This document shows positions 2,388 to 56,693 of a DNA stretch of 64,000 nt, piece by piece (positions within the stretch are counted from its first letter, which is position 1; each line of letters starts with the position of its first letter). Source of the DNA: Nitrospirota bacterium. GTDB lineage: Bacteria > Nitrospirota > Thermodesulfovibrionia > Thermodesulfovibrionales > JdFR-86. Made by a program: the position numbers and the translations under genes. The DNA lies in the NCBI GenBank assembly GCA_963721805.1, contig CAVRJY010000001.1, forward strand, positions 499,882 to 563,881. The letters are read 5' to 3'. The notes under the pieces are model-generated. The model was not told the origin of the DNA. It did not search any database and saw only the letters and a list, made by a program, of their open reading frames with translations.

Positions 2388-2492
2388 CGAGCTGCGTCCC
2401 CCTTGAGGTTTGGATGTTTCGATTATATCACGGCATATGCGAGGGGGCCCCCTGTTAAATCCCGTGCCTGTTTTCCCTTATAATAAGACCCG

Positions 2493-4883
<2,391 letters not shown>

Positions 4884-19040: not shown

Positions 19041-19163
19041 AGTCCCTCCTGTAGCTGAGCGTATTCTTTTTTATTGATTAATGGCTGAAAGTATAGTATA
19101 TTTACACGAATAGTATACATGTGGCGTTATGCATATTAAAACAGGGGGTGAAAGGGGAATCCT

Positions 19164-19445
19164 ATGGGAGAAGAAAAACTCTCGAAAGAGGAGTTCATCA
19201 GACAGGCTATCGTAGGGCTCAGGAAAGAGGGGTACAAGGGTATCCATACCGTCTATTCCGGCTTTAACGAGGCCTTCAAAGCCTATTATCCCGGCGAGGA
19301 TCCGATAGTGAACACGACCAAGCTCGCATCCGAGGGCAAGATCGTCATCCGTCCCGTCAGGGGCGGCGTGATGCTATACCTGCCCGAGGACGCCCCCGCT
19401 CAGGGCCGCACGGCCGAGGAGGCTCTCAAAAAAATGGGCCTATGA
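19164..19445 (+). CDS. Small conserved-looking hypothetical protein coupled to nadD
   Basis: 93-aa ORF with a purine-rich Shine-Dalgarno region; its stop overlaps the nadD start (ATGA). Confidence 0.55.
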   Translation: MGEEKLSKEEFIRQAIVGLRKEGYKGIHTVYSGFNEAFKAYYPGEDPIVNTTKLASEGKIVIRPVRGGVMLYLPEDAPAQGRTAEEALKKMGL

Positions 19446-20149
19446 AAATAGGCATCCTCGGCGGGACCTTCAACCCGGTCCATTACGGCCACCTGAGGGC
19501 CGCCGAAGAAGTACGGGAGCGGCTTGCCCTGGAGCGGGTGCTGTTCGTGCCCGCCGGCACGCCTCCCCTTAAATCCGGCGAACTCGCTGATGCCCGCCAC
19601 CGTCTCGAGATGGTAACTCTCGCGGTGGCGGGCAATCCTTTTTTCGAGGTCTCCGGCGTCGAGTGCAACAGGCCCGGGACCTCCTATCTCATCGAGACGC
19701 TCGAGACCATCTCGGCCGGACACCCGGACTGGGAGCTGTATTTCATCATCGGCTCCGAGGCGTTCGCCGAGCTCCCGAGGTGGCGCGAGCCCAGGCGGCT
19801 CCTGAATATGGCGCGCTTCGTCGTGCTCGGCCGCCCGCCGCTCGGGTTCGAGGCCGCGCTTAAGGGCTCGCCGTACATCGGCGACGCGCACGCGCTCCGG
19901 GCGCTTGACCGGGGTGAGACCGGGGAGGCCGAGGTCAGCGTTATGGGCGGGGGCTCGGTCATAATGCTCCGGATGGATGCCCTGCCGGTCTCGTCCACCG
20001 CGATACGCTCGGCCCTCAGGGAGGGCAGGAGCATAAGGTATCTGTTGCCACGCGACGTTGAGTTATATATAATAACTGAGAAGCTTTATTTGCCTATGCT
20101 CAGGGAGGACCAGACGACAAGGCGCGAAGGGAAGACAGATTGCCGTTAA
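19442..20149 (+). CDS. nadD: Nicotinate-nucleotide adenylyltransferase
   Basis: GILGGTFNPVHYGHL motif; ...SSTAIR near the C-terminus. Confidence 0.9.
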   Translation: MKIGILGGTFNPVHYGHLRAAEEVRERLALERVLFVPAGTPPLKSGELADARHRLEMVTLAVAGNPFFEVSGVECNRPGTSYLIETLETISAGHPDWELYFIIGSEAFAELPRWREPRRLLNMARFVVLGRPPLGFEAALKGSPYIGDAHALRALDRGETGEAEVSVMGGGSVIMLRMDALPVSSTAIRSALREGRSIRYLLPRDVELYIITEKLYLPMLREDQTTRREGKTDCR

Positions 20150-20565
20150 AACGCAAGGACGCAAGCAGGCGGCGCGCGATTGAAATTGCCCGTATAGCCC
20201 TGGATAAGAAGGCCTCATCGGTAGTCGTTCTAGATATGTCCGGTCTCGTGTATTTCACCGATTACTTCGTGATCTGCTCGGCCGATAACGTCACCCACGC
20301 CGGGGCGCTCGTGGACCACATCGAGCAGGGCATGAAGACCGCCCACAGGCTCAGGCCGATAGGGATCGAAGGCAGGCAGCACGCCCACTGGGTGCTGATC
20401 GATTACGGCGACGTCGTCGTGCATGTGTTTGACAGGGAAACCCGCGAGCACTACGAGCTCGAGAAGCTCTGGCTCGACGCCCCGGAGGTCGCGGTTGAGG
20501 AAGCTAAGGATAAGGCTGCTGTGGGTGGGAAAGACACGGGAGGCGTATCTGAAAAAAGGCATTGA
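20140..20565 (+). CDS. rsfS: Ribosome silencing factor RsfS
   Basis: 141-aa ORF; ...TDYFVICS...W.LIDYGDVVVHVF...R..Y.LE.LW pattern. Confidence 0.85.
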   Translation: MPLKRKDASRRRAIEIARIALDKKASSVVVLDMSGLVYFTDYFVICSADNVTHAGALVDHIEQGMKTAHRLRPIGIEGRQHAHWVLIDYGDVVVHVFDRETREHYELEKLWLDAPEVAVEEAKDKAAVGGKDTGGVSEKRH

Positions 20566-20950
20566 CGACTACCTCGAGAGGCTCGGCCCGTACGCCGAGG
20601 TCGAGGTCGTGGAGATAAGGGAAGAGAAGGGCGCAAGCGGCGGGCTGAGCGCCGAGGGCCTTGCGCGCGAGGGCAGGCGTATTGCCGGGAAGTCCGGCGG
20701 CTACGTCCTGCTCGACGAGCGGGGCCGCCAGCTGAGCTCCCCCGAGCTCGCCTCATACCTGGGCAAGCACCCCTCGGTGGACTTCGTCCTGGGAGGGGCC
20801 TACGGCGTGAGCGACGAGGTGCGCAAGGGCGCTGGCGATACGATCTCTCTCTCGCAAATGACGCTCACCCACGAGATGGCCCGGCTGCTGTTTACGGAGC
20901 AGCTCTACAGGGCATGCACCATAATCCGCGGCATGAGGTATCATCACTGA
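20495..20950 (+). CDS. rlmH: 23S rRNA (pseudouridine1915-N3)-methyltransferase RlmH
   Basis: ORF 20423..20950. The homologous part starts at RIRLLWVGK. TTG at 20495 is preceded by GGAGG at 6-nt spacing. The C-terminus has LSLSQMTLTHEMARLLFTEQLYRA. Confidence 0.8.
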   Translation: MRKLRIRLLWVGKTREAYLKKGIDDYLERLGPYAEVEVVEIREEKGASGGLSAEGLAREGRRIAGKSGGYVLLDERGRQLSSPELASYLGKHPSVDFVLGGAYGVSDEVRKGAGDTISLSQMTLTHEMARLLFTEQLYRACTIIRGMRYHH

Positions 20951-20951
20951 G

Positions 20952-22265
20952 ATGGCCAAGCTCGTCCTGCTGATATTCATAATCGTGCTCGGGGCGTTCG
21001 GTCTCCTGGCCGCCTACAACCACGGCACCACGGACATAAACGTCCCTTTTGACAAGACCTACGAGGTCTCGAAGCCCGGCCTGATACTGATGTCCTCGGC
21101 GGTGGGCGCGCTGCTGATGTTCGTCATGTTCGTCGTGCGCGACACGCGGAGGTTCCTGCTCACCTACCAGTTCCAGCGCAACCGCAAGCGCGAGGAGCGC
21201 ATAGACAACCGCTACTCCAAGGCCATGAACGCGATGCTTGCCGAGGACGAGGCCGAGGCGCGCGCCGCTTTAGAGGGCATACTCAAGGAGGACCCGGAGC
21301 ACACCGGGGCGCTCCTGAGGCTCGGCGACCTGGAGCTCAGGCGCAAGGAGTACCAGGCCGCGCTCGAGTGCTACCGCAGGGCGCTTGCGATCTCCCCGCG
21401 GAGCCTCGAGGTGCTTTTCAGCATAGTGACCGCCAACGAGAAGCTCCACCGCACCGTCGACGCGATCCGGTATATCGAGGAGATCCTCGAGATAGACCCC
21501 GACAACCTCAACGCCCACCACCGGAAGCGCTCGATCCTCGAGGCCCAGGGCCGGTGGGAAGACGTCATGGACCTTCAAAAGCAGATCGTCCGCTACGAGC
21601 ACGACGGCCACCAGCGCTCGGTCGAGCAGGCCCTGCTTCTGGGCTACCGCTACGAGGTCAGCCGCGAGCACCTTGAGCGCGGCGACGTCGAGAAGGCGAT
21701 GAAGGGCTTCAAGGCCATACTCAAGGACGACAAGGACTTCATCCCGGCTTACCTGGGCGCGGCCGAGGGGCTGTTTCTGTCCGAGCCCGAGCCGGAGGAG
21801 GCCGTGGAGTTCCTGGAGAAGGGCTACGAGCAGACCTCGTCGCACATCATACTGGCTCGGCTCGAAGACATGCTGATAAACCTCGGCGAGCCCGCCCGGC
21901 TTATCAAGACATACAGGGCCGCCATAGCGCGCGACCCAAAAAACGACATGCTCAAGTTCTTCCTCGCGAAGCTCTACTACAGGCTCGAGATGATCGACGA
22001 CGCCTTCTCGATCATGTCCGCGCTCGATATGCCGCAGCCGTTCCCGGAGTTCTCGACCCTGATGGGGCAGCTCCACCTCAGGCGCGGCCAGTGCGAGCGC
22101 GCCGTGGAGGAGTTCAAGAAGTCCCTCGACTTCAAACGCGCCATCCTGGTGCCCTACTGCTGCTCCGCCTGCGGCACCGTGGCGCAGGAGTGGTCCGGCC
22201 GCTGCGCCAACTGCGGCGGATGGAACACCTACAAGTTCAAGTTCAATGTCTCCTGCAAGCTCTAG
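20952..22265 (+). CDS. lapB: LapB (YciM)-like LPS assembly protein: LapA-like N-terminal membrane segment, TPR repeats, C-terminal rubredoxin-type zinc site
   Basis: 437-aa ORF; two N-terminal TM helices; multiple TPRs; C-terminal CCSACGTVAQEWSGRCANCGGWNTY. Confidence 0.7.
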   Translation: MAKLVLLIFIIVLGAFGLLAAYNHGTTDINVPFDKTYEVSKPGLILMSSAVGALLMFVMFVVRDTRRFLLTYQFQRNRKREERIDNRYSKAMNAMLAEDEAEARAALEGILKEDPEHTGALLRLGDLELRRKEYQAALECYRRALAISPRSLEVLFSIVTANEKLHRTVDAIRYIEEILEIDPDNLNAHHRKRSILEAQGRWEDVMDLQKQIVRYEHDGHQRSVEQALLLGYRYEVSREHLERGDVEKAMKGFKAILKDDKDFIPAYLGAAEGLFLSEPEPEEAVEFLEKGYEQTSSHIILARLEDMLINLGEPARLIKTYRAAIARDPKNDMLKFFLAKLYYRLEMIDDAFSIMSALDMPQPFPEFSTLMGQLHLRRGQCERAVEEFKKSLDFKRAILVPYCCSACGTVAQEWSGRCANCGGWNTYKFKFNVSCKL

Positions 22266-22851
22266 CCGGCTGCGAGTCGTCCTGGACACGAGCCTCTTCG
22301 TCAACCCCGACGTGAGGGCCAGCCTTGGGGAGAACCCGACCGAGGCGATCACCAGGTTTCTGGAGCTCGCCTCGCGCATACCCTCGGTGGAGTTTTACAT
22401 GCCCCCCTCCGTGTTTGAGGAACTCATGAACTTCGTCGAGCGCGGGCGGCTGCCCGCGGCGCTCCTGATCCACCTGATACAGAAGTCCCCGCAGCGGTAC
22501 GAACTCATGACCCCGGCCGCGTTCATATACGAGCTCATCGAGGAGATCAGGGAGCGCATCAACCGCGGCCTGCGCGTGGCCGAGACCGCGGTGCGCGGCG
22601 CGGCCTTAAAGGGCGGCGTGGACGAGGTGATCAAGGACCTGCGGCGGAAGTACCGCGAGGCGCTCAGGGAGGGGATCATCGACAGCCGCGAGGACGTGGA
22701 CCTGATCCTGCTCGCGCGCGAACTGGACGCCACGCTCGTAAGCGCCGACCAGGGGGCGGTGAAGTGGGCCGACAAGCTCGGCATCAAGTGGCTGCTGCCG
22801 GAGAAATTCAAGGAATACCTCGAGGCGCTGGAGCAGAGTCCCGCCGAATAG
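22246..22851 (+). CDS. PIN-like metallonuclease of the HARP family (Aq_880-type protein-only RNase P; older label RNA ligase partner MJ_0950 family)
   Basis: 201-aa ORF; VVLDTSLFVNP..., FYMPPSVFEEL, FIYELIEEIRERINRGLRVAE, KYREALREGIIDSREDVDLILLARELDATLVSADQG. This matches my memory of the Aq_880 family pattern and size. Confidence 0.6.
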   Translation: MSPASSSRLRVVLDTSLFVNPDVRASLGENPTEAITRFLELASRIPSVEFYMPPSVFEELMNFVERGRLPAALLIHLIQKSPQRYELMTPAAFIYELIEEIRERINRGLRVAETAVRGAALKGGVDEVIKDLRRKYREALREGIIDSREDVDLILLARELDATLVSADQGAVKWADKLGIKWLLPEKFKEYLEALEQSPAE

Positions 22852-22997: not shown

Positions 22998-24113
22998 CTA
23001 TTTTGCGGGCTGCTTGTCTTTGGGACCTTTTGCCGTGGGGGTGTCGGCGGGTTTTTCGGCCGGATGCAGGGCCGGATCGTCGGGGTGTGCCTGCTTGTAG
23101 CGGTCCGAAAGGTACTGGAAGATCTGGACCCTTCCGTTTACGCTGTCCGCGACGTAGACCTTGTCGTTGTGGTCAACGAAGATGTCCTCCGGGATCCGGA
23201 ACGTCCCGAGGCTGCTGCCGGTCGCGCCGACGAAGAGATAGACGAGGCCCTTGGAGTCGAATATCTGGAAATTGCCGAACGCGGCGTCCGTGATGAAGAC
23301 ATACCCGTCGTCGCTTATGGCGATGCCCTTCGGCCTGGCCACGCTCCCCGGGGTGTCGCCGTGCTGGCTGAATGCGCGCGAGGTCTTGCCGTCGGGGCTT
23401 ATCACCTGTATCCTGAAGTTCATCGTGTCGACGACGTAGACGTTGCCGTCCTTATCCAGCGCGATGCCGGTCGGAAAATGGATCTGGCCTACATCGATGC
23501 CCCCTGAGGCGAGCTGTCCCACGTATTCGCCTTTATCGTCGAATATGAAAATCCCCTCCAGCTTCGAGTCGCTCACGTACATGAGCTTGCGCACCGGGTC
23601 GAGCGCCACCCCTACGGGGTTTCTAAGCTTGCCTTTCGCCGTAATGTACTTGAGCTTGGAGCTGTCCAGGTCGAAGATATATACCGAGCCGGCCCCGGCG
23701 TCCGCCACGGCGATCAGCCTGTTTGTGAGGTCGACCGCGATCGACATGGGGGTCTTCCAGCCGTATGGATGCGCCAGGAAGTCGAGCGTGTTTTTCTGCA
23801 GGTTGATGACAGCCACCTTATGGAGCTGGATGTCGGAGACGTAGATGTTCCCCTTGTCGTCGGCTGCGATGCCGTGCGGCTTGGCGAACCTGAACGTGTA
23901 ATCATCGCCGAACATGGCGTCGAAGTTGCTGTTGCTCGATACGTCGAGGTCAGTGGTGATGGTTTTGAGGAGCTTTATCTTCGCGGGCTCGGGGGGCTTC
24001 GGCCATACGTAGCCGGAGAGGTCCATCGGTTTGCGCGGGGCCGCGCAGCCGACGATCATCGCCGCGAGGATGGCAAGGCTTACAGCCAGGATGGATTTAT
24101 TGAGCTTGTACAC
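22998..24113 (-). CDS. NHL-repeat beta-propeller lipoprotein
   Basis: 371-aa ORF; lipobox LAAMIVGC; repeated ...G.L..P.G(I/V)A.D..GN(I/V)YV(S/V)D NHL-type units. Confidence 0.8.
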   Translation of the reverse strand: MYKLNKSILAVSLAILAAMIVGCAAPRKPMDLSGYVWPKPPEPAKIKLLKTITTDLDVSSNSNFDAMFGDDYTFRFAKPHGIAADDKGNIYVSDIQLHKVAVINLQKNTLDFLAHPYGWKTPMSIAVDLTNRLIAVADAGAGSVYIFDLDSSKLKYITAKGKLRNPVGVALDPVRKLMYVSDSKLEGIFIFDDKGEYVGQLASGGIDVGQIHFPTGIALDKDGNVYVVDTMNFRIQVISPDGKTSRAFSQHGDTPGSVARPKGIAISDDGYVFITDAAFGNFQIFDSKGLVYLFVGATGSSLGTFRIPEDIFVDHNDKVYVADSVNGRVQIFQYLSDRYKQAHPDDPALHPAEKPADTPTAKGPKDKQPAK

Positions 24114-24189
24114 TGATCCATTTTAATTAAACTTCCGCCCCCGAGTCAAGGCGGCCCAGGTGACGTCCGGCGCGATATGTGATATATTT

Positions 24190-27100
24190 ATGTCATATAC
24201 GTATATAAGGGGTGGGGGTGCGTTGAATTACTTAGGGCTTGATGCCGGCTCCGTAAGCGTAAAGGCCGTTGTGCTGGATCCCTCCGGAAGCAGGGTGAGG
24301 TCGACCTATGTCCTGCACAGGGGACATCCCCTGCCTGTGGCGCTCTCGGTGCTCAGGGAGTTCAGCTCCGCTTCAGAGTGCCTCGTGTCCGTCACAGGTT
24401 CCGCCGGGCGGCTCATATCCTCCGTGCTGGGGCTGGAGCCCATAAACGAGATCGTCGCCCAGTCCTATGCCGCGAGGCGGCTCTATCCCCACGTCCGCAC
24501 CGTGATCGAGATGGGGGGCGAGGACTCGAAGCTCATCCTGCTTGGCGAGGCCGGGGTCAGGGACTTCGCGATGAACTCGGTCTGCGCCGCTGGCACCGGC
24601 TCGTTCCTGGACCAGCAGGCCGAGCGGCTCAGGCTCCGGGTGGAGGAGCTCGGCGAGCTCTCGCTTCAGTGCAAAAAGCCGCCCCGCATAGCCGGGCGGT
24701 GCAGCGTGTTCGCCAAAAGCGACATGATCCACCTCCAGCAGATCGCCACTCCGGTTCACGATATCGTGGCCGGGCTGTGCTTCGCGGTGGCCCGCAACTT
24801 CAAGGGCTCGATCGCGCGCGGCCGCACGGTCGCGGCTCCCGTGGCGTTTCAGGGCGGGGTCGCCGCCAATGTGGGCATGGTGCGCGCCTTCAGGGAGATA
24901 TTCGGCCTCGAGGAGCTGTTCGTGCCCGAGGAGTTCGCGCTTACGGGCGCGATCGGCGCAGCGCTGAAGGGCATCGAGGAGGGCACCGCCCGCGCCATCG
25001 ACCTCAGCGCTCTCGAGCGCTACATCGACGAAGGCCACACTGCGCGCGAGGGCCACGCGCCGCTGATATCCGTTGGCGACGGGTTTAAGGCCCGCCACCT
25101 CGACCCGGACCTTTCGGTCATGCACCCGCCGAAGGCCGGTCAGCCTGACGCCTATATGGGCATAGATATCGGCTCGATCAGCACGAACCTCGCGGTGACA
25201 GACGCCGAAGGCCGCCTGCTCGCCAAGCGCTACCTGATGACCGCCGGCCGGCCGATCGAGGCCGTAAGCCGGGGACTCGCCGAGATAGCCGCCGAGGTTG
25301 GGGGCAAGGTCAATATCCGCGGCGTCGGCACCACGGGATCGGGCCGGTACATGATAGCGGACTACGTCGGGGCCGACATCGTCAAAAACGAGATCACCGC
25401 CCAGGCCACCGCGGCCGCGCACATCGACCCCACCGTGGATACGATCTTCGAGATCGGCGGGCAGGACTCGAAGTTCATATCGCTTAGAGACGGCGTGATC
25501 GTGGACTTCGAGATGAACAAGGCCTGCGCCGCAGGCACGGGATCGTTTTTGGAGGAGCAGGCCGAGAAGCTCGGCATCTCGATCAAGGGCGAGTTTCAGG
25601 ACGCCGCGTTTTCATCGGATAACCCCTGCAAGCTCGGCGAGCGCTGCACCGTGTTCATGGAAAACTCGCTGATGGCTAATCTCCAAACCGGCACCGCGAC
25701 CCCGGACCTCCTGGCCGGGCTTTCGTACTCAATCGTCCAAAACTACATAAACCGCGTAGTCGCCGGCCGCGCGATAGGCAAGCGGATCTTCTTTCAGGGC
25801 GGCGTCGCGTTTAACAAATCCGTGGTCGCCGCGTTCGAGAAATACACCGGAGAGACCGTCACCGTCCCGCCGAACCACGACGTCACCGGCGCGATAGGCA
25901 TGGCGCTCATCGCCCAGCGCAACGCGCGGGACAACTCTGCCGGGCGCTCTTCGTTTAAGGGCTTCGAGTACTCGAGCCGCCCCTATACGGTCTCGTCGTT
26001 TGAGTGCCGGGGCTGCGAGAACCTCTGCGAGATCAACCGCGTGCAGGTCGAGGGACACCAGGAAAAGCTGTTCTACGGCGGCAGGTGCGAGAAATACGAC
26101 ATCCGCAAGAAACGCGCCTCCGGGCCCCCGGACCTCTTCGCGTTCAGGGAAGAGCTGATGGCCTCGTATGTCAGGCCGCCCAAAGGGTCCCGGCCCACGG
26201 TCGGAGTCCCGCGCATATTCTATTTCGAGGAGATGCTGCCCTATTGGGCCACGCTGCTTGAGGAGCTTGGGTTTGATGCGGTACTTTCGCCGCACACGAA
26301 CCGCAGCGTGGTGGACCTCGGGCTCGAGACCGTGCTCTCGGAGGCCTGTTTCCCGGTGAAGGTCGCGCTCGGGCATGTCCGGCAGCTCAAGAACTCCGGG
26401 GTCGATGCGGTCATTCTGCCGAGCTTCATCAACATGAATACCGCGAGCGAGGAGTTCGCAAGCGGCCAGGCCTGCCCGCACACCCAGACTATCCCCTATG
26501 TCGCGCGCACGGCGGTCGAGGGGCTGCGCACGGTCACCCCGGTGGTCGATGTCGCGCGCGGCCAGGAATACATGATCAGGGAACTCGGCCGGGCGTTTAG
26601 AGAGGCCGGGCTCGGGCGCGGCAAAGGGGCGATAAAACGCGCCGTGACCGCGGCCGAACGCTCGCAGGAAGCCTTCAGGCAGGCGCTGCTCGAGCGCGGG
26701 CGGATCGCGCTTGAATCGCTTGCCGGCCGCGCGGTGGTCGTGATCGGCCGGGCGTATAACGCGCTGGACCGCGGGATGAACCTCGGCGTGCCGGAGAAGC
26801 TCGCGACACTCGGGGTGCTCTCGATCCCGATGGACATGCTCCCGATAGACGATATCCGCCTCAGCGACGACTGGCCTGACATGTACTGGAGGTCGGGGCA
26901 GCGCGTGCTGCGCGCCGCGCGGTTCGTGGCGGGCCACGAGCACCTCTATCCGATCTTCATCGGCAGCTTCCTGTGCGGCCCGGACTCTTTCATACTCAAG
27001 TATTTCGCCAGGGAGCTGATGGACAAACCGTACCTGCACCTCGAGATCGACGAGCACAGCGCCGACGCAGGTGCGATCACGCGCTGCGAGGCCTTCCTCG

Positions 27101-28392
27101 ACAGCATCGACGGACAGAGGCGGGCCGCTCCAAAGCCGGTTGCCGTATTGCCTGTCAGGAGAGGGGCCGAGCCCTCGGGCATCGGCGGCAGGACGATCTA
27201 TATCCCCAATATGTCAGACCACGCCTGGGCGCTCGCCGCCGCGTTCGAACGCGCCGGGGGCCGCGCCGAGGTCCTGCCCGAGAGCGACAGCCGCTCGGTC
27301 GAGTTGGGCATGCGGCACGTCTCCGGCAAGGAGTGCTATCCCTGCGCGGTGACTACAGGCGATATGGTGCGGGCCGCAACCGACCCGGGATTCAGGCCCG
27401 AGCAGTCAGCGTTTTTCATGCCGTCCGGCTCCGGGCCGTGCAGGTTCGGGCAGTATAACGTATTTCACAAGCAGGTGCTCGAATCGATAGGGATGGCGGA
27501 CGTCCCGGTCTTCGCCCCCGTGCAGGACGATACCCTCTATGCCACGCTCGGCGTCATCGGCAAGGACTTCGTAAAGCACTCCTGGCATGGCATCGTGGCC
27601 ATGGAGCTCCTGGGCAAATGCCTGCGCGAGACACGCCCGTACGAACGCGAAACCGGAGCGTCCGACGCACTCTATGGGGATTACTTAAAGCGGCTGTATG
27701 CGGCCCTGCGCTCAGGCCGGGGCGGCGTCGAAGGCGTGCTCAGAGACATGAGGCGCGATTTCGTCGCGGTGCCGCGCACGGGCGAGCCCCGCCCCCTGAT
27801 CGGCGTGATCGGCGAGATATTCGTCCGCAGCAACCGGTTCTCCAACGAGGACCTGGTCAGAAAGATCGAGAGCTTGGGCGGCGAGGCATGGCTTTCGCCG
27901 GTCGAGGAGTGGATTTATTACATAAATCAGATGGCGATGCGGCAGGCCTTGATAAAGCGGGACGTCTCTGTTATCATAGACACTTTCGTGAAAAGGAAGT
28001 ACAAGCATTACGTCGAGCGCCGTTACAGCGGCGCGTTCGAGGGGTTCTTAAGGACGCTCCACGAGCCGGGTACGGGGGACATTCTCAGAAAGGCCGCCCC
28101 CTATGTCCACGATTCCTTCGAGGGCGAGACCGTGCTGAGCATCGGCAAGGCCGTCGACCTCTGCGAGCGCGGGGCCTCGGGGATCGTAAACGCGATGCCC
28201 TTCGGGTGCATGCCGGGCACTATAGTGACCGCCCTGATGAGGGGCATAAGCAGGCGCTACGGCATCCCGTCGATAAGCGTGCCGTACGACGGAACAGCGT
28301 CTCCGGCCAACGCCATCGTGCTGGAGGCGTTCATGGACCAGGCGAAGGGCATGAAAAAAAGCTCAACCGCGCGGGAGACGGTCCCGCGTTAA
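24190..28392 (+). CDS. Large fusion of two BadF/BadG/BcrA/BcrD(HgdC)-type activase ATPase domains with 2-hydroxyacyl-CoA-dehydratase-like domains
   Basis: ORF 24160..28392. Two actin-fold ATPase units (LGLDAGSVSVKAVVLD...; MGIDIGSISTNLAVTD...), each with MNSVCAAGTGSFLD / MNKACAAGTGSFLE. The C-terminal ~750 aa is dehydratase/DUF2229-like. Start candidates: ATG 24190 or TTG 24223. Confidence 0.8.
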   Translation: MSYTYIRGGGALNYLGLDAGSVSVKAVVLDPSGSRVRSTYVLHRGHPLPVALSVLREFSSASECLVSVTGSAGRLISSVLGLEPINEIVAQSYAARRLYPHVRTVIEMGGEDSKLILLGEAGVRDFAMNSVCAAGTGSFLDQQAERLRLRVEELGELSLQCKKPPRIAGRCSVFAKSDMIHLQQIATPVHDIVAGLCFAVARNFKGSIARGRTVAAPVAFQGGVAANVGMVRAFREIFGLEELFVPEEFALTGAIGAALKGIEEGTARAIDLSALERYIDEGHTAREGHAPLISVGDGFKARHLDPDLSVMHPPKAGQPDAYMGIDIGSISTNLAVTDAEGRLLAKRYLMTAGRPIEAVSRGLAEIAAEVGGKVNIRGVGTTGSGRYMIADYVGADIVKNEITAQATAAAHIDPTVDTIFEIGGQDSKFISLRDGVIVDFEMNKACAAGTGSFLEEQAEKLGISIKGEFQDAAFSSDNPCKLGERCTVFMENSLMANLQTGTATPDLLAGLSYSIVQNYINRVVAGRAIGKRIFFQGGVAFNKSVVAAFEKYTGETVTVPPNHDVTGAIGMALIAQRNARDNSAGRSSFKGFEYSSRPYTVSSFECRGCENLCEINRVQVEGHQEKLFYGGRCEKYDIRKKRASGPPDLFAFREELMASYVRPPKGSRPTVGVPRIFYFEEMLPYWATLLEELGFDAVLSPHTNRSVVDLGLETVLSEACFPVKVALGHVRQLKNSGVDAVILPSFINMNTASEEFASGQACPHTQTIPYVARTAVEGLRTVTPVVDVARGQEYMIRELGRAFREAGLGRGKGAIKRAVTAAERSQEAFRQALLERGRIALESLAGRAVVVIGRAYNALDRGMNLGVPEKLATLGVLSIPMDMLPIDDIRLSDDWPDMYWRSGQRVLRAARFVAGHEHLYPIFIGSFLCGPDSFILKYFARELMDKPYLHLEIDEHSADAGAITRCEAFLDSIDGQRRAAPKPVAVLPVRRGAEPSGIGGRTIYIPNMSDHAWALAAAFERAGGRAEVLPESDSRSVELGMRHVSGKECYPCAVTTGDMVRAATDPGFRPEQSAFFMPSGSGPCRFGQYNVFHKQVLESIGMADVPVFAPVQDDTLYATLGVIGKDFVKHSWHGIVAMELLGKCLRETRPYERETGASDALYGDYLKRLYAALRSGRGGVEGVLRDMRRDFVAVPRTGEPRPLIGVIGEIFVRSNRFSNEDLVRKIESLGGEAWLSPVEEWIYYINQMAMRQALIKRDVSVIIDTFVKRKYKHYVERRYSGAFEGFLRTLHEPGTGDILRKAAPYVHDSFEGETVLSIGKAVDLCERGASGIVNAMPFGCMPGTIVTALMRGISRRYGIPSISVPYDGTASPANAIVLEAFMDQAKGMKKSSTARETVPR

Positions 28393-52641: not shown

Positions 52642-53316
52642 ATGGATAAGGACGCAGCGTTAAAGCTCAAGGTCGTGGGTTTTTTCTCCGCCCTCACCGA
52701 CGACGAATTCCAGCGGATCGGCCACCGCGTCAGGATCGAGAGGTTCCAGCGTGGGACCGCGATCTTAAACGAGACCGACACGAACGAGTATATGTACGCT
52801 GTAGTCGAAGGTGAGGTGAAGGCCTCACGCACCCTCGATGACGGCCGCGAGACTATCCTCGCCATACACGGCGCTGGCGAGTCCTTCGGGGAACTCGCTC
52901 TGATCGACGGCCGGACCGCCCCGGCCACGGTCACGGCCGCAAGAGACTCCATTGTTGCGCTCATAGCGAAGCGTGATTTTCACGAGATCCTTATGGCCGA
53001 CCGGAAGGTGCTCTCCTATTTTCTCCGCCTGATGTGCTCCCGCCTCCGCGAGGCCTGGCGCACGCATGAGATACTCCAGCAGCGGGACGCCTGCGAGCGG
53101 ATCAGGATGATGCTCGGAAAGCTCGCCGCGGAGCGCGGCACACAGCTCCCGGAGGGAGTGCTGATCAACTCACGCCTGACCCACCAGGAGATGGCCGAGA
53201 TGACCGGCCTGACGCGCGAGACCGTCACGCGCGTGATCGACCAGATGAAACTGGACGGCCATTTAAGGCTCGGCGAAGACCGCCTGTACGTACTTCTGAA
53301 AGATTTTTTTGCGTAG
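52642..53316 (+). CDS. Crp/Fnr-family transcriptional regulator
   Basis: 224-aa ORF; cNMP-binding-type domain (GESFGELALIDG) and C-terminal HTH (THQEMAEMTGLTRETVTRVI). Confidence 0.9.
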   Translation: MDKDAALKLKVVGFFSALTDDEFQRIGHRVRIERFQRGTAILNETDTNEYMYAVVEGEVKASRTLDDGRETILAIHGAGESFGELALIDGRTAPATVTAARDSIVALIAKRDFHEILMADRKVLSYFLRLMCSRLREAWRTHEILQQRDACERIRMMLGKLAAERGTQLPEGVLINSRLTHQEMAEMTGLTRETVTRVIDQMKLDGHLRLGEDRLYVLLKDFFA

Positions 53317-53833: not shown

Positions 53834-55153
53834 ATGAGGAAATATTCAGCGGGCATAGCAGCGCTGGCCGTGTTATTCGCCCTGTCATTCGGCATGGGTG
53901 CGGTGGCGCATGCGGATGACGGTGGCGACGGCGTGAGTGCAAAGACGATCGGCGCGGCATCAAGCGCATATGTCGTGTTCTCCTGGAACGACCTCGGCAT
54001 GCACTGCATGAACCCCACTTACGACAAGGCGGTTATCCTGCCTCCGTATAACAACCTCTACGTACAGGTCGTGAAGCGCGGCAACCCGCCCATGATTGTC
54101 AACAGCGGGATCTCCGTCTCGTACAGCATCGCCGGCAATACGTATACCTACGGCAAGCGCAGCTACGGCCAGTTTTGGGACAATATGATGGAGCTGTTCG
54201 GCATATCGCTGCCCAAAAACAAGGGGCTTAACCTGACGGACCCGACCGTCAATAACGGTCTTTCGGGAAAGATGCTTGCGAAGCCTGACTATTACGTCGC
54301 CAACGGCATACCCGTCTCTCCGGTCTCGGACAAGGGTGCCTGGAACCCCTACCAGGTAGCGAATATCACGGTCAAGAACAGCTCCGGTACGGTCATCGCC
54401 AGGACGCAGGCCACCATCCCGGTCTCGGACGAGATCAGCTGCTCGAAGTGCCACGGGGCCGACCCGTTCGACGATATCCTCACCAAGCATGACGCGATGC
54501 ACGGCACCGACCTGATGAACAGCAAGCCGGTCATATGCGCCGGCTGCCACGGCGATCCGATTCTCGGCCAGACCGACACGGGCGCGGCGGGCATCTACCT
54601 CTCCGCGGCGATACACAGCTCACACGCCGACAGGGGCGCAGCCTGTTATGACTGCCACCCGGGGGACAAGACGCAGTGCAGCAGGAGCCTCGCCCACACC
54701 GCACCTGACGGCAACTGCACGACCTGCCACGGCCAGATGAGCGACGTCGGCGGCAGCATTCTAAACGGCACGCGCACCCCCTGGGCCGGCGAGCCCAAGT
54801 GCTATACCTGCCACAACGTCGCAAGCCAGGTCGACACCGGCGATGCCCTCTACCGCAACTCACGCGGCCACGGCAATATGTTCTGCTCGGCTTGCCACGG
54901 AAGCCCGCATGCCATGGTCCCCACTAGCAAGGCCTCGGATAACTATCAGGCCATACAGGACCAGAGCGCAGCCTACACGATCGGTGACTGCAGGGTCTGC
55001 CACCAGACCTCGCGCGGCGGCGGCAGCGCCTCTGAGTTCGCCGAGGAGCATGGCGGCAGCAACAAGAGCGCCTGCAACGTTTGTCACACCGGCTACAAGT
55101 CAGCGCGCGACACCACCAAGTGGCCGCATAACTTCCTCTGGAAGTCGAGATAA
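53834..55153 (+). CDS. Secreted octaheme c-type cytochrome with ~170-aa heme-free N-terminal domain (paralog 1)
   Basis: 439-aa ORF; AAGGAGG upstream; signal peptide ...AVAHA/DD; eight CxxCH motifs, all in the C-terminal ~240 aa; N-terminal WNDLGMHC motif. Confidence 0.9.
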   Translation: MRKYSAGIAALAVLFALSFGMGAVAHADDGGDGVSAKTIGAASSAYVVFSWNDLGMHCMNPTYDKAVILPPYNNLYVQVVKRGNPPMIVNSGISVSYSIAGNTYTYGKRSYGQFWDNMMELFGISLPKNKGLNLTDPTVNNGLSGKMLAKPDYYVANGIPVSPVSDKGAWNPYQVANITVKNSSGTVIARTQATIPVSDEISCSKCHGADPFDDILTKHDAMHGTDLMNSKPVICAGCHGDPILGQTDTGAAGIYLSAAIHSSHADRGAACYDCHPGDKTQCSRSLAHTAPDGNCTTCHGQMSDVGGSILNGTRTPWAGEPKCYTCHNVASQVDTGDALYRNSRGHGNMFCSACHGSPHAMVPTSKASDNYQAIQDQSAAYTIGDCRVCHQTSRGGGSASEFAEEHGGSNKSACNVCHTGYKSARDTTKWPHNFLWKSR

Positions 55154-55391: not shown

Positions 55392-56693
55392 ATGCGGAAA
55401 GGCTTAATAGTCTCGCTCGCGGCAATCGCATTATTGTTCTGGTCATTCGGGATGGCGTTTGCGGATGACGACGTCGGGTCCAAGAAGATCGGCGCGGCCA
55501 AGAAACCATACGTTGTGTTCGCCTGGAACGACCTCGGGATGCATTGCCTGAACCCCACTTACGACACTGCCGTGATCCTGCCTCCGTATAACAGCCTTTA
55601 CGTTCAGGTCGTCAAGCGCGGCAACCCCCCCACGATAGTCAACAGCGGGATCTCGGTCAGTTATAGCATCGCCGGGAATACCTATTCATACGGCAAGCGC
55701 AGCTACGGCCAGTTCTGGGACAACATGCAGGCTCTGTTCGGGATAACGCTCCCGCATGACAAGGGCCTTAACCTCACGGACCCGACGGTCAACAACGGGC
55801 TCTCGGGCGGGATGCTAGCCAAGGGCGACTACTATGTCGCAAACGGGATACCAGTGACGCCGGTCCTCGACAAGAAGCTTAAATGGAACCCCTATCAGGT
55901 CGCCAATATAACGGTCAAGGACGCAAGCGGCAAGGTCATCGCCAAGACCAAGGCGACCATCCCGACCTCGGACGAGATCAACTGCGCCAAGTGCCACGGG
56001 GCCGACGCTTTCAACGATATCCTCGCCAAGCATGACGCCCTGCACGGCACAGACCTGATGAACAGCAAGCCTGTAATCTGCGCCGGCTGCCATGGCGACC
56101 CCATCCTGGGCCAGACCGACGAGGGCGCGGCGGGCATCTACCTCTCGGACGCGATCCACAGCTCTCACGCCGACAGGGGGGCGGCCTGCTATGACTGCCA
56201 CCCCGGTGAGACCACGAAGTGCAGCCGCAGCCTCGCCCATACCGCCGCGGACGGCAACTGCACGACCTGCCACGGCCAGATGAGCGACGTGGCCTCGAGC
56301 ATCGAGGCCGGCCGCATACCCTGGAGCGGCGAGCCCAAATGCTATACCTGCCATAACGTCTCAAGCCAGGTCGATACCGGTGACGCCCTCTACCGCAACT
56401 CGCGCGGACACGGCAACCTGTTCTGTTCGGCCTGCCACGGGAGCCCGCACGCCATGGTCCCGTCAAGCCAGAAGTCCGACAACTACCAGGCCAAGCAGTA
56501 CCAGAGTGCGGCCAGGACGATAGGCGACTGCAAGGTCTGCCATAGGACCTCGCGCGGTGGAGGCGGCGCCTCGGAGTTCGCCCATGAGCACGGGGGCGGC
56601 AGGAAGAGCGCGTGCAGCGTCTGCCATACCGGATTTACCGCTGCCGCCGACTCCTCAAAATGGCCTCACGCCTTCCTCTGGAAGTCGAGGTAA
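55392..56693 (+). CDS. Secreted octaheme c-type cytochrome (paralog 2)
   Basis: 433-aa ORF; AGGAGG upstream; signal peptide ...GMAFA/DDD; eight CxxCH motifs at positions equivalent to paralog 1. Confidence 0.9.
   Translation: MRKGLIVSLAAIALLFWSFGMAFADDDVGSKKIGAAKKPYVVFAWNDLGMHCLNPTYDTAVILPPYNSLYVQVVKRGNPPTIVNSGISVSYSIAGNTYSYGKRSYGQFWDNMQALFGITLPHDKGLNLTDPTVNNGLSGGMLAKGDYYVANGIPVTPVLDKKLKWNPYQVANITVKDASGKVIAKTKATIPTSDEINCAKCHGADAFNDILAKHDALHGTDLMNSKPVICAGCHGDPILGQTDEGAAGIYLSDAIHSSHADRGAACYDCHPGETTKCSRSLAHTAADGNCTTCHGQMSDVASSIEAGRIPWSGEPKCYTCHNVSSQVDTGDALYRNSRGHGNLFCSACHGSPHAMVPSSQKSDNYQAKQYQSAARTIGDCKVCHRTSRGGGGASEFAHEHGGGRKSACSVCHTGFTAAADSSKWPHAFLWKSR

Follow-up and report, generated by a model that had tools for sequence, protein, structure and literature searches.

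RNase P is a classic essential ribozyme, and each lineage in which a small protein replaces that ribozyme helps to explain its persistence in nearly all other organisms. The bacterium Aquifex aeolicus is known to lack both rnpA and rnpB. The protein-only RNases P that most resemble the gene described here are Aq_880 of A. aeolicus (AaHARP, also written Aq880; PDB 7F3E, 8KD9/8KDA), the HARP of Thermococcus celer (TcHARP; 7E8J) and the HARP of Planctomycetes bacterium GWF2_40_8 (PbHARP; 7E8K, 7E8O), the latter two of which both cleave pre-tRNA in vitro (PMC9051087). To these can be added the HARPs of Thermodesulfovibrio species and other Thermodesulfovibrionia (Daniels 2019; Seshadri & Gopalan 2025). 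We analyzed a 64-kb stretch of DNA from a Nitrospirota bacterium (contig CAVRJY010000001.1, positions 499,882 to 563,881 of the forward strand; hereafter the window), in which a preliminary description made from the sequence had proposed a candidate HARP of the Aq_880 family lying downstream of lapB. The open reading frame (ORF) concerned, 22246..22851 on the plus strand, has an ATG start and encodes 201 residues plus a stop, for a predicted monomer of ~22 kDa. Sequence comparison makes it very probable that its product is a homolog of the Aquifex RNase P, a PIN_5-type metallonuclease with a two-helix arginine-rich insertion that acts in pre-tRNA 5' maturation.

The family assignment draws on three independent libraries: Pfam, NCBIfam and the PDB chain sequences. 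The Pfam family PIN_5 (PF08745) matched residues 10–195 over profile positions 1–203 of 205, with E = 5.3e-62 and 209.3 bits against a cut-off of 27. Two NCBIfam models were also matched above their cut-offs, TIGR03875 ('RNA ligase partner protein') with 213.8 bits against 95.3 and NF003344 with 243.2 bits against 241, and the generic VapC-type PIN profile PF01850 reached 22.3 bits, below its cut-off of 23.6. When all PDB chain sequences were searched, the seven best matches were all named 'RNA-free ribonuclease P', with E-values from 1.4e-60 to 1.3e-46; the matching HARPs (7e8j, 7e8k/7e8o, 8kd9, 7f3e, 7og5, 8ssf/8ssg and 8kda) aligned nearly gap-free over ~185 residues. Pairwise identity of the window HARP was 50% to the Aquifex enzyme (over 183 residues), 53% to TcHARP and 54% to PbHARP. 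A model built by AlphaFold2 from the single sequence had low confidence (mean predicted local distance difference test score 57, predicted template modeling score 0.42) that made it unfit for fold searching, and we therefore relied on sequence alignment to the solved HARPs. On this evidence the ORF is almost certainly a full-length, intact member of the HARP / PIN_5 family (COG1458). The motifs quoted in the preliminary description are all found in the translation (VLDTSLFVNP, FYMPPSVFEEL, FIYELIEEIRERINRGLRVAE and KYREALREGIIDSREDVDLILLARELDATLVSADQG), and the identity it proposed is borne out by the Pfam, NCBIfam and PDB matches and by the catalytic aspartates. It had named two ways in which the proposal could fail, placement in a different PIN subfamily (VapC or NOB1-like) and loss of the metal-binding aspartates; the profile scores place the protein in PIN_5 rather than with VapC or NOB1, and the alignment to Aq880 shows that all the metal-binding aspartates are present.

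Catalytic residues were located by pairwise mapping to 8kd9_A, numbered with VLDTS starting at residue 5, a register confirmed by the fact that it reproduces every published A. aeolicus residue number. D14 (GAC codon, 22285..22287, plus strand) is equivalent to catalytic D7 of Aq880. D146 (22681–22683) and D150 (22693–22695), which lie in the motif IIDSREDVD (22681..22695, plus strand), are equivalent to D138 and D142. D168 (GAC codon, 22747..22749, plus strand), in the motif VSAD, is equivalent to the fourth catalytic aspartate, which occupies position 160 in 8kd9_A, is written D161 in PMC8266387 and is homologous to D173 of PbHARP (PMC9051087). The essentiality of the catalytic aspartates comes from earlier work (PMC8266387). 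Their conservation could be followed in an alignment of 66 HARPs, in which the window protein and Aq880 were joined by 64 sequences taken from related loci. A scan of 185,579 species, each represented by a single genome, had returned 64 such loci; the window's own organism does not figure in that collection. The loci belong to Nitrospirota, Aquificaceae, Thermococci, WOR-3, Gammaproteobacteria and one myxobacterium, and the aligned HARPs thus cover at least five phyla. The columns of D146, D150 and D168 hold aspartate in all 66 HARPs and that of D14 in 65, the single exception being a truncated sequence.

Six arginines with tested roles in the Aquifex enzyme and the C-terminal helix are likewise retained. 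The two-helix arginine-rich insertion, known as the spike-helix or protruding-helix domain, could be placed from the nearly gap-free alignment to the solved HARPs 7e8j, 7e8k and 8kd9 at about residues 90–145 (22513..22680, plus strand; boundaries approximate). R102, R110, R117, R133, R137 and R141 of the window protein map to R94, R102, R109, R125, R129 and R133 of Aq880, respectively. In Aq880, R102, R109, R125 and R129 (window R110, R117, R133 and R137) bind the tRNA elbow, and the remaining two, R94 and R133 (window R102 and R141), lie at the cleavage site. Alanine substitution of the six arginines in Aq880 abolishes binding or activity (PMC12217051), and the equivalents of R94, R125, R129 and R133 are invariant among the 66 aligned HARPs. 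With regard to secondary contacts with the acceptor stem, K99 of Aq880 is replaced by R107 and K127 is kept as K135. The C-terminal helix (about residues 185–195, PEKFKEYLEAL; 22798..22830, plus strand) aligns to PKNFKNILESL of Aq880 and is the counterpart of the Aq880 region that includes residues 177–183; truncation of this helix reduces Aq880 to dimers and abolishes activity, the helix being needed for higher-order oligomers (PMC8266387).

A mechanism can be proposed for the window HARP from its homology to the enzymes whose structures were solved from Aquifex, Halorhodospira, Thermococcus and Planctomycetes. Monomers would pair via the helical insertion to form a four-helix bundle, and the resulting dimers would stack via the C-terminal helix into tetramers and assemblies of up to dodecamers. 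R110, R117, R133 and R137 of one dimer would hold the T-psi-C elbow of the pre-tRNA by its phosphate backbone, and the adjacent dimer, aided by R102 and R141, would put the junction of leader and acceptor stem into its active site of D14, D146, D150 and D168 with Mg2+. The 5' leader would thus be removed at a fixed distance from the elbow, in the fashion of a molecular ruler. Robust pre-tRNA 5' processing by the window HARP seems likely, and we infer that the protein is a constitutively needed enzyme of tRNA 5'-end maturation, possibly the sole RNase P of its host organism.

ATG 22246 is a sound start, as no other canonical start codon precedes the codon of catalytic D14 and the closest relatives keep an N-terminal extension of 9–10 residues, equal in length to that of the window HARP. 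The first 20 nt of the gene (22246..22265, plus strand) overlap the end of the gene upstream (20952..22265, plus strand; stop codon 22263–22265), which encodes a 437-residue membrane protein with tetratricopeptide repeats (TPR) and a zinc ribbon. The preliminary description had called this gene lapB, and its architecture agrees with that name, since an N-terminal hydrophobic segment is followed by TPR repeats, with matches to many TPR families, and by a C-terminal CxxC...CxxC zinc ribbon. The scores do not, as the LapB models of NCBIfam aligned over their full length with at best 58.9 bits against a cut-off of 363, and Zn_ribbon_LapB reached 20.5 bits, under its cut-off of 25.7. 'LapB-like' is therefore a defensible name, as the layout resembles LapB and the scores fall far under the equivalog cut-offs. 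Upstream of the LapB-like gene, all on the plus strand, lie an uncharacterized 93-residue ORF without a Pfam or NCBIfam match (19164-19445) and nadD (19442-20149), rsfS (20140-20565) and rlmH (20423-20950 as a mechanical ORF), the last three identified by Pfam and NCBIfam. A consensus scan gave promoter-like sites at 19074–19102, upstream of the small ORF, and at 20045–20073, upstream of rsfS. The scan showed neither kind of signal, promoter-like or terminator-like, separating HARP from the LapB-like gene. The 20-nt overlap suggests co-transcription and translational coupling of these two genes, whose tblastn matches also overlap, by 13 or 16 nt, in nine related loci. HARP is probably co-transcribed with the LapB-like gene, and we infer that it is the last gene of a nadD-rsfS-rlmH-LapB-like transcription unit.

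This arrangement is shared widely within the phylum. Among the 185,579 species genomes, the best relatives of the window HARP are 57–73% identical to it, the closest being at 73%, and they are labeled almost without exception as metagenome-assembled genomes (MAGs) of Nitrospirota, Thermodesulfovibrionales or Dissulfurispiraceae. The order small ORF (where present)-nadD-rsfS-rlmH-LapB-like-HARP was found by tblastn of the window proteins in 39 Nitrospirota loci and was absent from the loci of Aquificaceae, Thermococcus, WOR-3 and proteobacteria. Across the cluster loci, median identity was 66.5% for HARP, 46.5% for nadD, 51.1% for rsfS, 51.4% for rlmH and 46.7% for the LapB-like protein, and HARP was the best conserved of the five in all 38 loci that could be compared. 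There is no sign of a recent transfer of HARP, since its G+C content at third codon positions (GC3), 0.90, matches the 0.91 of its LapB-like neighbor. In a neighbor-joining tree of 65 sequences, the window HARP is nested in a monophyletic Nitrospirota clade to which the Thermococci are the sister group. The cluster order, the top rank in conservation, the matching GC3 and the position in the tree indicate, from comparison of sequences, an old vertical inheritance of the HARP gene under strong purifying selection, which fits a housekeeping role. The window has a G+C content of 60.7%, and its host is a high-GC, Thermodesulfovibrionia-like member of the Nitrospirota.

Two observations on the labels of the related loci can be recorded here. 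The locus of one MAG labeled as Chloroflexota (L020; JBLMXV010000165.1) has the full Nitrospirota-type rsfS-rlmH-LapB-like-HARP cluster and its HARP falls inside the Nitrospirota clade; we consider misbinning or mislabeling a likelier explanation than a genuine HARP of Chloroflexota. In addition, the names of many HARP-bearing Nitrospirota MAGs (L012-L015, L017, L019, L021, L022, L025 and L031) suggest soil, peat and groundwater surveys, a habitat assignment judged from isolate names alone (MFD..., SPRUCE..., NC_groundwater...). These names agree poorly with a published account in which HARP comes predominantly from extreme habitats (PMC12153264).

The role of the window HARP in its host, as sole RNase P or as one of two, depends on the remainder of the genome. 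No RNase P RNA was found in the window with Rfam at gathering thresholds, and the window also has no tRNA genes. Searches by tblastn for RnpA (queries from E. coli, B. subtilis and T. maritima) and for the ribosomal protein L34 (query from E. coli) gave no credible match in the window or in the 65 loci. The majority of HARP-bearing bacteria also carry rnpA and rnpB. An indirect indicator of dependence on HARP is the base at position -1 of tRNA genes, which is A in 38 of the 44 such genes of A. aeolicus (PMC12439589). The corresponding base in the Nitrospirota loci was A in six cases and T in four, a sample of only ten that are non-independent, most being one tRNA-Leu orthologue, and too small to be informative. 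We give the possibility that the window genome is HARP-only an even chance at best. The wider proposal is more tentative and, in our judgment, somewhat short of even: that a high-GC Nitrospirota lineage, possibly non-extremophile (on MAG names only), has lost the ribozyme and may depend on HARP as its sole RNase P, encoded in a nadD-rsfS-rlmH-LapB-like-HARP operon and uncoupled from the RNA ligase Rnl3. If true, this would make a second large bacterial clade beside the Aquificaceae in which the ribozyme has been replaced, possibly outside extreme habitats.

Several points weigh against an active, sole RNase P, and some of them also speak for the most serious alternative, namely that a genuine HARP works beside a classical rnpB/rnpA system, as a back-up or on other RNA substrates, a role that has been suggested in archaea and gammaproteobacteria. 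Of five HARPs of bacteria whose genomes also encode a ribonucleoprotein (RNP) RNase P, four cleaved pre-tRNA weakly or not at all, in spite of high sequence similarity, typical sequences and normal oligomers (PMC9945441; PMC12153264). Conserved residues are therefore not a guarantee of robust RNase P activity, and the mostly weak HARPs of organisms with both systems (PMC9945441) speak for a back-up function, as does the lack of a phenotype in archaeal HARP knock-outs (PMC12153264). In the window protein itself, R123 of Aq880, another secondary contact with the acceptor stem, is replaced by D131, in a column that is highly variable across the 66 HARPs. Finally, rnpB and rnpA may well lie in the genome beyond the 64 kb searched, and the content of the window is compatible with an rnpB elsewhere on the 1.55-Mb source contig. 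On the other side, HARP-only bacteria, with RnpA taken as proxy, were reported specifically in a few genera of Aquificae and Nitrospirae (Daniels et al., PMC6380272), and the position of HARP as the best conserved product of a housekeeping cluster would be unusual for a dispensable back-up. Neither of these is decisive, and we regard coexistence with the classical enzyme as only slightly short of an even prospect.

A second alternative is that the window HARP is the partner of an Rnl3-type ligase and trims RNA ends for circularization or adenylation (Seshadri & Gopalan 2025). The name of the matched model TIGR03875 points to such a partnership, as does a published survey in which 89% of HARP-positive genomes had the Rnl3 RNA ligase (PF18330/TIGR01209); where a bacterial genome had both genes, the ligase lay within 5 kb of HARP in 80% of cases, usually in convergent orientation (Seshadri and Gopalan, PMC12153264). 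We searched for Rnl3 by tblastn with two queries, the convergent 372-aa and 382-aa ORFs that adjoin HARP in Aquifex and Thermococcus loci, both of which were taken as Rnl3 from their position and KxDG motif alone. Even with the threshold relaxed to E<10, neither query matched anywhere in the 64 kb of the window, and there was no remnant downstream of HARP. The same queries detected a ligase beside HARP in 24 loci from outside the Nitrospirota. Of the loci from within that phylum, whose flanks are typically ~10 kb on each side, only three (L024, L036 and L037), all from Thermodesulfovibrionales MAGs, gave a ligase match. In each of these it is convergent and directly downstream of HARP (minus strand; locus coordinates 1236-2339, 2492-3094 and 3129-3995, respectively), and in L036 and L037 the LapB-like gene is kept upstream. 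Since three loci keep the ligase while the window and most Nitrospirota loci have none nearby, the distribution suggests insertion of a HARP-ligase pair behind the LapB-like gene, followed by repeated loss of the ligase. Table S1 of the same survey lists all Thermodesulfovibrio genomes as HARP-positive and ligase-negative and Dissulfurispira thermophila as having a convergent ligase (PMC12153264). With no match in the window and Thermodesulfovibrio ligase-negative, the window represents, at least locally, the documented ligase-less Nitrospirota type, and the HARP residues are fully conserved even without a ligase. A ligase-coupled role is unlikely here, as no ligase is nearby and related genomes have none.

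The weakest alternative, in which the protein would be a PIN toxin of the VapC kind, paired with an antitoxin, or else a nuclease of a defense system, is extremely improbable, for although HARPs fall structurally within the VapC group of PIN domains and a toxin origin for them is discussed in the literature, a VapC-type toxin was excluded by the profile scores (PF01850 below cut-off against 209 bits for PIN_5), the ~55-residue helical insertion that VapC proteins lack, the upstream position of a 437-aa TPR protein gene where no small antitoxin ORF is found, the housekeeping context in 39 loci and the absence of a PADLOC match for either HARP or the LapB-like protein.

Some features of the neighboring genes are of interest in their own right. 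The rlmH ORF as listed begins inside rsfS, and its SPOUT_MTase match starts at residue 28. A TTG codon at 20495-20497 would give the usual rlmH start (M-R-K-L-R-I-R-L-L-W-V-G-K), and the true start is probably ~70 nt downstream of the listed one; a gene beginning at the TTG would continue to share sequence with the end of rsfS, which encodes a low-complexity C-terminal tail. The 93-aa ORF is conserved at 53–79% identity in nine Nitrospirota loci, above the conservation of nadD, rsfS and rlmH. It lies upstream of nadD in all nine, directly abutting it in about half, and in the window its stop overlaps the nadD start. Downstream of HARP, a convergent gene encodes an NHL-repeat protein (22998-24113, minus strand), and beyond it a 1410-aa fusion protein unrelated to HARP (24160-28392, plus strand) combines two BcrAD_BadFG ATPase modules with a DUF2229 'CoA enzyme activase'; a promoter-like site is found at the start of its ORF. 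Farther along, a riboswitch of the cyclic-di-GMP class c-di-GMP-I (RF01051; 53509-53607, plus strand; 45 bits against a gathering score of 35) lies just downstream of a Crp/Fnr-like regulator ORF, a label read from the sequence, which ends at 53316. Approximately 225 nt downstream of the riboswitch are tandem paralogous ORFs for secreted proteins (53834-55153 and 55392-56693, plus strand), each product having about eight CxxCH heme-binding motifs and resembling multiheme cytochromes c. This layout of riboswitch and cytochromes recalls the riboswitch-controlled cytochromes of Geobacter.

HARPs have already been reported from Nitrospirota, with HARP-only and ligase-less genomes among them, and what is offered for the window gene is a correct functional annotation within a family described both structurally and biochemically. 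To this our analyses make modest additions: the conserved operon context, the high conservation of HARP relative to its neighbors and the local lack of a ligase. If the genome proves to lack rnpB and rnpA, the case for a clade-wide replacement of the ribozyme in Thermodesulfovibrionia would be strengthened, and that replacement would be untied from the pairing of HARP with Rnl3 and, possibly, from extreme habitats.

The window HARP can also be compared with known systems. With VapC toxins (PF01850) it has in common the core PIN alpha/beta/alpha fold and acidic metal-binding residues, but unlike them it has an inserted helical domain, no antitoxin partner and a score under the PIN cut-off. The eukaryal PRORP enzymes are, like HARP, RNA-free RNases P, and their PIN-like metallonuclease site superposes on that of HARP (PMC8266387). 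Both follow the same molecular-ruler logic (PMC12217051), although the two are of independent origin and the elbow is bound in PRORP by a PPR domain fused in the same chain and in HARP by a neighboring subunit of the homo-oligomer.

Among the HARPs themselves, TcHARP and PbHARP are the best PDB matches (E = 1.4e-60 and 3.6e-58, respectively). TcHARP is archaeal and coexists with an RNP RNase P, whereas PbHARP has a 13-residue N-terminus rich in Lys and Arg and is a dimer in vitro (PMC9051087), in contrast to the Ser-rich N-terminus of the window HARP. Aq_880 has a similar length and two-domain layout, an identical tetrad of aspartates, the same six arginines and the C-terminal oligomerization helix. 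It differs from the window HARP in the latter's 9-residue Ser/Arg N-terminal extension and in the exchange of R123 for D131, and also in its surroundings, since its host is a hyperthermophilic member of the Aquificaceae, in whose loci HARP lies beside a convergent Rnl3 ligase, whereas that of the high-GC Nitrospirota host closes a nadD-rsfS-rlmH-LapB-like cluster with no ligase nearby. The closest counterparts are the HARPs of Thermodesulfovibrio and other Thermodesulfovibrionia, which belong to the same phylum-level clade and occupy an orthologous position, as exemplified by the locus of a T. yellowstonii MAG (L010) with rsfS, rlmH, the LapB-like gene and a HARP 66% identical to that of the window. 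Thermodesulfovibrio species are ligase-negative hot-spring thermophiles of ~34% G+C (PMC12153264), in contrast to the high G+C content of the window.

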